A DNA stretch of 41,432 nucleotides, taken from the UHGV virus genome UHGV-1461890. The stretch is one strand, 5' to 3'. How positions within the stretch are numbered: position 1 is the stretch's first letter; each line of letters starts with the position of its first letter. This document shows, in pieces, positions 35,621 to 35,799 of the stretch. Both the position numbers and the translations under genes were made by a program. The notes beneath the pieces were generated by a model, which was not told the DNA's origin, made no database searches, and worked only from the letters and a program-made list of their open reading frames with translations. The stretch is from a virus.

Positions 35621-35635
35621 TTTCACCTCTTCAAT

Positions 35636-35664
35636 ATATTACCATATAAGTTCAGAAAAATCAA
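35636..35664 (-). promoter_or_regulatory. candidate repressor-maintenance promoter (TTGATT - 17 nt - TAATAT on minus strand)
   Basis: Minus-strand reading TTGATT-TTTCTGAACTTATATGG-TAATAT; operator half-site TTCTGAAC lies in the spacer. Confidence 0.35.
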
Positions 35665-35735
35665 TACAAAGTTTAGAAAATTGGGGTTTTCAACCGAGAC
35701 AAAATAAAAAAGTTCAGAAAAATTGAAAAAAATAC

Positions 35736-35764
35736 TTGACATTTCGACAAAAAACCGTTAAGAT
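35736..35764 (+). promoter_or_regulatory. candidate early rightward promoter (TTGACA - 17 nt - TAAGAT) for Cro-like gene
   Basis: Exact TTGACA at 35736-35741; -10 TAAGAT at 35759-35764; palindromic operator immediately downstream. Confidence 0.45.
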
Positions 35765-35766
35765 AA

Positions 35767-35783
35767 GTTCAGAAAATCTGAAC
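35767..35783. promoter_or_regulatory. palindromic operator GTTCAGA-AAA-TCTGAAC, with half-site copies at 35650-35657 and 35712-35719
   Basis: Perfect 7-3-7 inverted repeat overlapping the predicted transcription start; AGTTCAGAAAAA repeated at 35649 and 35711. Confidence 0.45.
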
Positions 35784-35799
35784 GAGGGAGGTGAAAATA

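Follow-up and report, generated by a model that had tools for sequence, protein, structure and literature searches.

The virus genome UHGV-1461890, a stretch of 41,432 nucleotides that is referred to here in its full length as the window, very likely carries a lysis/lysogeny switch of the CI-MOR type described for the lactococcal phage TP901-1 and for phi13, in what would be a temperate phage of gut Clostridia. The switch lies between two divergent genes, namely a leftward gene for a CI-type repressor (cI, 35204 to 35620, minus strand) and a rightward gene for a MOR-like protein of the DUF739 family (mor, 35800 to 36045, plus strand). A first-pass annotation had described positions 35627 to 35799 as a divergent promoter/operator switch between a CI-like and a Cro-like gene. 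A divergent switch between a repressor and an early regulator is what homology and the related loci support, but the protein called Cro-like is a MOR homologue. The interval proposed is the core of the switch but does not mark its limits, since a further operator, at 36031 to 36047, also belongs to it, and the switch probably includes an SOS-controlled module beyond cI (34978 to 35298). The reading is carried by the homology of both proteins, by the layout, geometry and helical phasing of the operators, and by the co-variation of operator sequence with the recognition helix of CI. The perfect palindrome pointed out in the annotation is an ordinary repressor operator, and the switch itself is of a known kind; what the analysis adds is annotation, in that the immunity region of this uncultured Clostridia phage can be assigned to a CI/MOR switch and given operator coordinates. 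A more unusual feature, the small gene behind a LexA box beside cI, lies outside the interval proposed and could matter more.

The CI and MOR homologues

The CI repressor consists of an N-terminal XRE helix-turn-helix (HTH) domain of the TP901-1 type and a short, helical C-terminal domain. It comprises 138 amino acids when read from the ATG at 35620; alternative starts are an ATG at 35617 and a GTG at 35626, and direct reading of the sequence gives a ribosome-binding site (RBS), GAGGTG, at 35624 to 35629 on the minus strand. Its Pfam matches are to HTH families only, including HTH_3 (E 6e-11) and Phage_CI_repr, and there is no S24 or other peptidase domain among them. The top four matches in the PDB are all entries of the TP901-1 CI N-terminal domain, with E-values from 5e-13 (6tri_A) to 2e-8, and BLASTP aligns the protein with TP901-1 CI at 44% identity over amino acids 6-74. 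The domain ends in the motif SEAWLMG[FY]DVPM of the TP901-1 type. The recognition helix reads PKSAISQY, compared with SKSTLSQY in TP901-1, and goes together with an operator core, GTTCA, that the two phages share. A profile of the C-terminal domain matched nothing in the PDB or Pfam.

The rightward gene encodes 81 amino acids and is preceded by an RBS, GGGAGGTG, at 35786 to 35793. Its product matches the Pfam family DUF739 above the cut-off (E 2e-11); the best match in the PDB is TP901-1 MOR (6to6_A, E 1e-9), to which it is 39% identical over the full length. The residues reported to form the CI:MOR interface are Q55, Y59, E69, M73 and F75 of CI and Y3, Y5, W43 and F67 of MOR (PMC11149083). 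When these are transferred to the window proteins through the BLASTP alignments with TP901-1 CI and MOR, Q55, E69 and M73 of CI prove to be identical (Q50, E64 and M68 in the window), Y59 is replaced by F, and F75 is replaced by Y; residue 75 is a tyrosine in phi13 CI as well. On the MOR side, Y5 and F67 are identical, while Y3 is an F and W43 an L. Such residues are compatible with CI:MOR binding but do not prove it. Because the rightward protein is homologous to MOR and the leftward one to CI, the pair represents CI/MOR homologues, and not the CI/Cro pair of lambda. That is, judging from its sequence, the "Cro-like" protein is most likely an antirepressor of the MOR type rather than a Cro.

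In a lambda-type CI/Cro arrangement, the rightward HTH protein would instead bind the operators of CI in another order of preference and repress the cI promoter directly, with no contact to CI. The protein does occupy the position of Cro and also matches the Cro/C1 HTH families HTH_26 and HTH_3, and its helix 3 (residues 36-46, GKTTFNEVLSG) is unlike the near-constant family motif xxxTLSLKLNN, so its behavior could differ from that of TP901-1 MOR. However, its best homology, over the full length, is to MOR/DUF739; the residues of the CI-binding pocket are mostly kept; the helix 3 of MOR proteins is nearly constant where operators differ, as would not be expected of an operator-reading protein; and CI is without the S24 domain of lambda-type repressors. 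We therefore consider a CI/Cro switch unlikely. The region does share with lambda the divergent promoters, an HTH repressor, promoter-overlapping operators, and a distant operator that could allow looping, but it has neither the three tandem operators shared by two DNA-binding proteins nor the autocleavage domain, and its counter-regulator is a MOR homologue. If the DUF739 protein is of the MOR type, no binding of operators by this protein alone is to be expected, and such a result would not refute the switch.

Operators and promoters of the proposed switch

The two opposed sigma70-like promoters that had been proposed were recovered. The lytic promoter, P(mor), spans 35736 to 35764 on the plus strand (TTGACA at 35736-41, a spacer of 17 nucleotides (nt), and TAAGAT at 35759-64) and scored 10/12 in a promoter scan. 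The lysogenic promoter, P(cI), spans 35636 to 35664 on the minus strand (-35 TTGATT at 35664-35659, a 17-nt spacer, and TGG plus -10 TAATAT at 35644-35636); it was identified by eye, and scores 8/12 plus an extended -10 TG, i.e., under the threshold of the scan. In alignments, the TTGACA of P(mor) is invariant among relatives, and the hexamer positions of P(cI) are kept in 8 relatives. The promoter calls rest on this conservation, because the scan yields no excess of promoter-like sites in the region over shuffled sequences (8 versus 8.5).

The perfect 7-3-7 palindrome, GTTCAGAAAATCTGAAC (GTTCAGA-AAA-TCTGAAC; 35767 to 35783, plus strand), starts 3 nt past the -10 of P(mor) and spans the expected start of mor transcription, as the first-pass annotation had it. 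We regard it as a putative operator equivalent to OL; relatives have a co-varying palindrome at the same place. The half-site copies reported at 35649 and 35711 are likewise exact, AGTTCAGAAAAA occurring identically at 35649-35660 and 35711-35722. The first is an isolated candidate CI half-site, AGTTCAGAAAA (35649 to 35659, plus strand), which does lie within the spacer of P(cI), as had been stated, and abuts its -35; its place is a conserved block, AAGTT[CT]AGAAAA, in all close relatives, and a full palindrome in more distant ones. The copy of AGTTCAGAAAA at 35711 forms the good half of a putative operator equivalent to OR, AGTTCAGAAAAATTGAAA (35711 to 35728, plus strand), which ends 7 nt before the -35 of P(mor). 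Its left half is perfect and its right half degenerate, and 35712-35728 is an imperfect palindrome with 3 mismatches to the perfect one; the position is kept in all relatives, where it often holds a good palindrome.

Three elements had been missed: the weak right arm of 35712-35728; an extra half-site, AGTTTAGAAAA (35670 to 35680, plus strand), in a 20-41 nt insertion that is absent from relatives; and a putative operator equivalent to OD, GTTCAGGAAAACTAAAC (36031 to 36047, plus strand), which overlaps the final codons of mor, stop codon included. In almost all relatives, an OD-type palindrome follows the YFF motif of the DUF739 protein and agrees with the operator of its own locus. In the window, the OR- and OL-equivalents are 55 base pairs (bp) apart, and the OL- and OD-equivalents 264 bp. 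The OD operator doubles as codons: the residues past the YFF motif of MOR and the stop codon are set by it in the window (36028-36047), in TP901-1 (locus L026, 3564-3583), and in most relatives, with readings such as GTT-TAG (Val-stop), GTT-CAG-GAA-AAC-TAA (VQEN-stop), and CTTGAATTAAATTCAAG (LELNS). The tail of MOR thus varies with immunity specificity.

Neither the palindrome nor the promoters are exceptional by number. The window, AT-rich at 38.5% GC, contains 6 perfect 7-3-7 palindromes where 3.6 are expected, and the palindrome itself is not rare; the argument is therefore one of clustering, position, and conservation. Allowing up to one mismatch, 8 copies of AGTTCAGAAAA are found in the window, compared with 1.78 expected, a count that none of 100 shuffles reached, and 4 of the 8 fall inside 35649-35776, within 130 bp. 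For the 17-mer palindrome, 4 matches with up to 3 mismatches were counted, which fall at three places, versus 0.21 expected. With a half-site weight matrix built from the operators of relatives alone, the window being excluded, 7 of the 37 window-wide matches of at least 9 bits fall in 35600-36100, i.e., in 1.2% of the window.

Three related palindromes are bound by CI in TP901-1: OR lies between the two back-to-back promoters, OL is located at the lytic promoter, and OD falls in the distal portion of mor (PMC7250872). In the TP901-1 sequence, OR, OL and OD read TTCATATTTCGTGAAC, GTTCATGAAACGTGAAC and GTTCATTAAACATGAAC, centered at 3263, 3327 and 3575; all three have the form GTTCA-N7-TGAAC, with OD covering the stop codon of mor. 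The window, too, has divergent promoters and three palindromic operators of this geometry at equivalent places, together with a homologous CI N-terminal domain and MOR, and CI is without an S24 peptidase domain in both phages. The published half-site consensus of TP901-1 and phi13 is AGTTCAYR (PMC8516035); the half-site of the window, AGTTCAGA, differs from it but fits it at 7 of 8 positions, and with identical spacing. The cI promoter of the window contains half-site-like, A-rich repeats where TP901-1 has OM1 and OM2, that at 35649 being at the place of OM1, while the half-site at 35670 is extra. The distance from OL to OD is 248 bp in TP901-1 versus 264 bp in the window.

The switch of phi13, a Staphylococcus aureus phage of the Sa3int group, is similar in its CI N-terminal domain, its Mor, and its plan of OR, OL and OD. 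phi13 CI binds OL and OD tightly (22 and 15 nM) and OR, of which one half-site deviates, weakly (310 nM), a difference of about 15-fold (PMC8516035). The perfect OL, good OD and degenerate OR of the window parallel these affinities.

Related loci and the proposed mechanism

Searches with CI gave 22 loci in IMG/VR and 14 from genomes of Clostridia, Oscillospiraceae, Ruminococcus, and Megasphaera, and about 25 non-redundant related loci were compared for operator layout. Nearly all have the same four-site plan, with a site at the spacer and -35 of P(cI), a second immediately before the -35 of the lytic promoter, a palindrome directly following its -10, and another past the YFF of the DUF739 gene; in an alignment of the close relatives, conserved blocks coincide with both promoters and with every operator. 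Relatives place the P(cI) site and the OR-equivalent at spacings of 21, 31, 42, or 62 bp, i.e., near whole helical turns, as would be anticipated if the bound proteins are in contact. The operator sequences vary among phages and agree inside each, as in GTTCAAGAAGCTGAAC, GTCAAATAAGTTTGAC, TTTCGTAAAATACGAAA, GTTGCATAAAAAGCAAC, ACTTGAATTAAATTCAAG, and AGTTTGGGAAACCAAACT.

These differences follow the recognition helix of CI. KSAISQY is paired with GTT[CT]A, S-E-Y with TTCGTA, S-R-Y with GTTGCA, and SESLxSKY with CTTGAA. Half-site identity tracks the identity of CI helix 3 (Mantel rho 0.59, reached in 0 of 2000 permutations), whereas the correlation with MOR helix 3, which stays near TLSLKLNN throughout, is not significant (rho 0.20, p about 0.09). 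This test leaves shared ancestry in, as CI, MOR and the operators are co-inherited, but MOR provides a linked internal control. The Mantel test replaced a matrix of best 15-mer matches between each locus's own OD and the intergenic regions, which was noisy, the DNA being AT-rich and many of the loci sharing one specificity; own loci ranked 1-3 only for distinct operators. For the window, the analysis yields AGTTCAGA as the predicted immunity specificity, along with a set of hetero-immune relatives. With these loci, the TP901-1 paradigm reaches beyond lactic acid bacteria and staphylococci into Clostridia and Negativicutes, and the natural pairs of recognition helix and operator might be of use in studies of specificity or in designing orthogonal genetic switches.

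The palindrome might alternatively act at the level of RNA, as a 5'-terminal stem-loop that stabilizes the mor mRNA or masks translation, or as a leftward read-through terminator. Consistent with this, it can form a 7-bp hairpin of -7.6 kcal/mol (z -3.5 versus shuffles), the minus-strand version of which is flagged as terminator-like. Yet unpaired copies of the half-site occur as well, and an imperfect palindrome of it lies ahead of the -35, outside the mor transcript; the layout is identical to that of the experimentally bound operators of TP901-1 and phi13; and the palindrome co-varies with the recognition helix of CI. We thus regard an RNA-level role as very unlikely, and the hairpin may well be a by-product.

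It is more improbable still, and in our estimate barely credible, that the repeats are read by a second HTH protein (34441-34866) rather than by the adjacent CI. The gene, of the XRE family, is indeed found on the strand of cI, 340 bp past it, and relatives retain a similar one. The protein, however, shows no detectable similarity to CI and has direct repeats of its own upstream, TAGTCAAA at 34883 and 34904, while the operator tracks the helix of CI, PKSAISQY going with the GTTCA core. As to the gene itself, located in 34441-34923, its product of 141 amino acids has a leucine-zipper-like coiled coil. The two repeats are 21 bp apart and just upstream of its start, and a like gene with repeats is present in L001 and L041.

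A blastn search of 34400-36400 against phage GenBank gave one match, of 80 nt, to a Streptococcus phage repressor gene, and nothing more. An exact 18-mer operator search in IMG/VR returned three loci (L023, L024 and L025), of which the one inspected (L024; 2518645623_000001, 4005-4026) has an identical palindrome, TAGTTCAGAAAATCTGAACT, but unrelated proteins, and was set aside as coincidence or convergence; it is a high-GC actinobacterial element in which the palindrome occupies an AT-rich gap between divergent genes, one of them HTH-like by eye. In L001 and L028, a remnant of a mor 3' end, with the T-run of YFF and an OD-like palindrome, GGTTCAGTTTTCTAAAC, lies between OL and the intact mor, some 70 nt ahead of its start, and resembles a scar left when modules were exchanged through recombination at operator sites.

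Taken as a switch of the CI-MOR type, the region would work as follows. In a lysogen, CI dimers would bind the palindromic operators through the half-site AGTTCAGA. CI on the OL-equivalent at 35767-35783 would block transcription of mor and the early genes, and the OD-equivalent at 36031-36047 and the weaker OR-equivalent at 35711-35728 would add cooperative binding and moderate cI autoregulation. After infection or induction, the DUF739 protein expressed from the rightward promoter would bind the N-terminal domain of CI as a MOR-type antirepressor and keep CI dimers off both halves of the palindrome, so that the lytic promoter is freed. The CI:MOR complex, still reading a single half-site, would shut off cI via the same-orientation half-sites at 35649 and 35670. 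The half-sites in the cI promoter are candidates for autoregulation too, and their places match those of the OM sites of TP901-1.

Besides the shared ancestry left in the Mantel test, several points weigh against this mechanism. Every functional step is proposed by analogy; binding at each site, its cooperativity, and the way in which the shorter CI oligomerizes are all presumed from the known switches. The lysine K36 in helix 3 of MOR is described as invariant and as needed for the anti-immune state in TP901-1 (PMC7250872). It is not conserved here, the corresponding residue being V43, and the whole helix deviates from the family consensus; the contact of MOR with DNA as a co-repressor may thus differ or be absent. 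The promoter geometry also differs, in that OL begins 12 nt after the -10 in TP901-1 versus 3 nt in the window, and OR and OL are 64 bp apart versus 55 bp. The window has no clear match to the published OM consensus, TCAACAnAA, and CI-type half-sites and A-tracts occupy the corresponding positions.

The remaining points concern the C-terminal domain of CI. In TP901-1, for whose CI/MOR switch the structures PDB 6TRI, 5A7L, 3ZHM, and 6TO6 are available (PMC7250872, PMC11149083), this domain is all-helical, with a dimerizing hook (CTD1) and a hexamerization region (CTD2). BLASTP finds no similarity between the window CI and TP901-1 CI past amino acid 79, and hhalign of the CI C-terminal family against TP901-1 amino acids 80-180 gave a probability of 5.5% and touched the hook region alone. 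The domain is of another sequence family, and the protein is 42 amino acids shorter (138 versus 180), ends about at the dimeric truncation CI-delta58, and has nothing that matches CTD2. For such a short CI with a different C-terminal domain, hexamer formation and looping between OL and OD may not apply.

The LexA-box promoter and the small gene beside cI

Beyond cI lies a strong promoter, P2, with a box of the LexA/Cheo type (34978 to 35027, plus strand). It consists of TTGACA, 18 nt, and TG-TAAAAT, scored 11/12 with the TG in the promoter scan, and is followed by the box, AGAACATTTGTTCG (35014-35027), which starts 6 nt past the -10. The box has the form of the LexA box of Bacillus and Clostridium, which is published as GAACN4GTTC and GAACnnnnGTTT (PMC4234289). 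A stretch of 45 nt of the lytic promoter recurs at 34984-35028 with 78% identity, with the LexA box there instead of the CI operator. A LexA-type box is found at the same place in L001, L003 and L027. Among 53 metagenome loci, it is exact in 19 and present with at most one mismatch in 34, compared with expectations of 0.0045 and 0.045 per 130 nt, and in the related loci it mostly stands 38-46 nt ahead of the start codon of a small open reading frame (ORF).

In the window, this small ORF (35122 to 35298, plus strand; 58 amino acids) is convergent with cI and overlaps its last 95 nt in antisense. It belongs to an unannotated family of 550 homologous clusters, typically of 51 amino acids; there was no Pfam domain or informative name among the 120 clusters listed, and no PHROG family matched. 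Outside the overlap with cI, its ratio of nonsynonymous to synonymous polymorphism (pN/pS) is 0.31 and, on the evidence of sequence, it is a real gene. IMG/VR gave only 3 loci with relatives of the ORF, and the metagenome scan supplied the rest. The ORF runs convergently into a repressor gene, and overlaps it, in 47 of 49 loci. The overlapped repressors always carry the C-terminal domain LxEGEKxLLDLFxRVPEDKQQLVLQMIRAALG, of which the window has a longer variant, while at least four kinds of HTH domain are found at their N-termini. AlphaFold predicts two helices for the small protein, with modest confidence (mean pLDDT 65).

P2 probably supplies an SOS input to the switch by expressing the small ORF. 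CI has no S24 domain and is a repressor that cannot cleave itself. The product might act on the C-terminal domain of CI, antisense transcription might run into cI, or both. Tentatively, and with rather less than even confidence, we propose a previously undescribed cassette, in which a LexA-repressed P2 would drive a two-helix protein of about 51-58 amino acids that breaks up or blocks CI much as SinI does SinR, an effect to which convergent transcription might add. Among phages of gut and rumen Clostridia, the cassette is combined with four or more HTH N-terminal domains that are unrelated to each other. If the small gene is indeed the inducer, it would explain how gut-phage repressors without a cleavage domain sense DNA damage, and the cassette would be a concrete route for SOS induction of uncleavable CI repressors.

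The SinR repressor of Bacillus subtilis is an XRE HTH protein with a short, helical C-terminal oligomerization domain, and SinI is a small helical protein of about 55 amino acids; SinI is not known to be LexA-controlled. By analogy, the small two-helix protein of the window could pair with the short helical C-terminal domain of the repressor, although no homology of the window proteins to SinI or SinR was shown and the small ORF resembles the C-terminal domain only marginally. In a comparison by hhalign of the small-ORF family and the C-terminal-domain family, the result was negative when long variants were included (probability 0.4%), whereas short variants alone gave a weak alignment from end to end (probability 5.4%, column-shuffle z 4.3). 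The small protein as a mimic of the CI C-terminal domain is therefore a lead only.

LexA-controlled antirepressors of non-cleavable phage repressors are known from Gifsy and N15. The Tum protein of coliphage 186 is also SOS-induced (PMC7250872). Like these systems, the window combines a repressor that has no cleavage domain with a small gene beside the immunity region whose promoter is overlapped by a LexA box. The candidate antirepressor of the window differs in that no sequence relation was found for it in Pfam or PHROGs, its gene is antisense to the repressor gene, and it travels with one repressor C-terminal domain. Searches of the literature on DUF739 and on LexA-regulated antirepressors in Clostridia returned no description of the small ORF.

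The phages used above for comparison differ from the window here as well. TP901-1 has ORF3, on the cI strand, where the window has the LexA-box small gene, and its induction is RecA-dependent by a mechanism that the literature gives as unknown (PMC11149083). The OM1-OM2 region of TP901-1 (L026, 3234-3245) reads TGAACAAAAGTTCA, i.e., the LexA/Cheo-box form GAAC-N4-GTTC, which may be coincidence. The C-terminal region of phi13 CI resembles that of lambda CI (PMC11149083) and would suit RecA-stimulated self-cleavage, whereas the window CI has no such domain. Some relatives with the same N-terminal domain as the window CI (L010, L012, L021, L034, L035 and L039) carry a C-terminal domain of the GDSM-type peptidase kind.

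P(mor) and P2 also share the element ATTTCGACAAA, whose only two exact copies in the window (35741 to 35751 and 34984-34994, plus strand) are in the spacers of the two promoters, both directly after the -35 TTGACA. Its reverse complement, TGTCGAAAT, is found directly upstream of the -35 of P2 in 43 of 53 relatives (L048-L103), versus 0.064 expected per 130 nt. The element is possibly a site of a further regulator, e.g., the neighboring second HTH protein.

Elsewhere in the window, an ORF of 3782 amino acids among the structural genes (15917-27265) contains an ART-PolyVal domain, the ADP-ribosyltransferase of polyvalent proteins, at residues 2188-2354 (E 2e-21). The two ends of the window, 1-65 and 41368-41432, consist of the same 18-nt tandem repeat, similar to CTGGCTCTGGCGATGGCT; the window is thus probably a complete circular or circularly permuted phage genome of 41.4 kb, cut inside the repeat.

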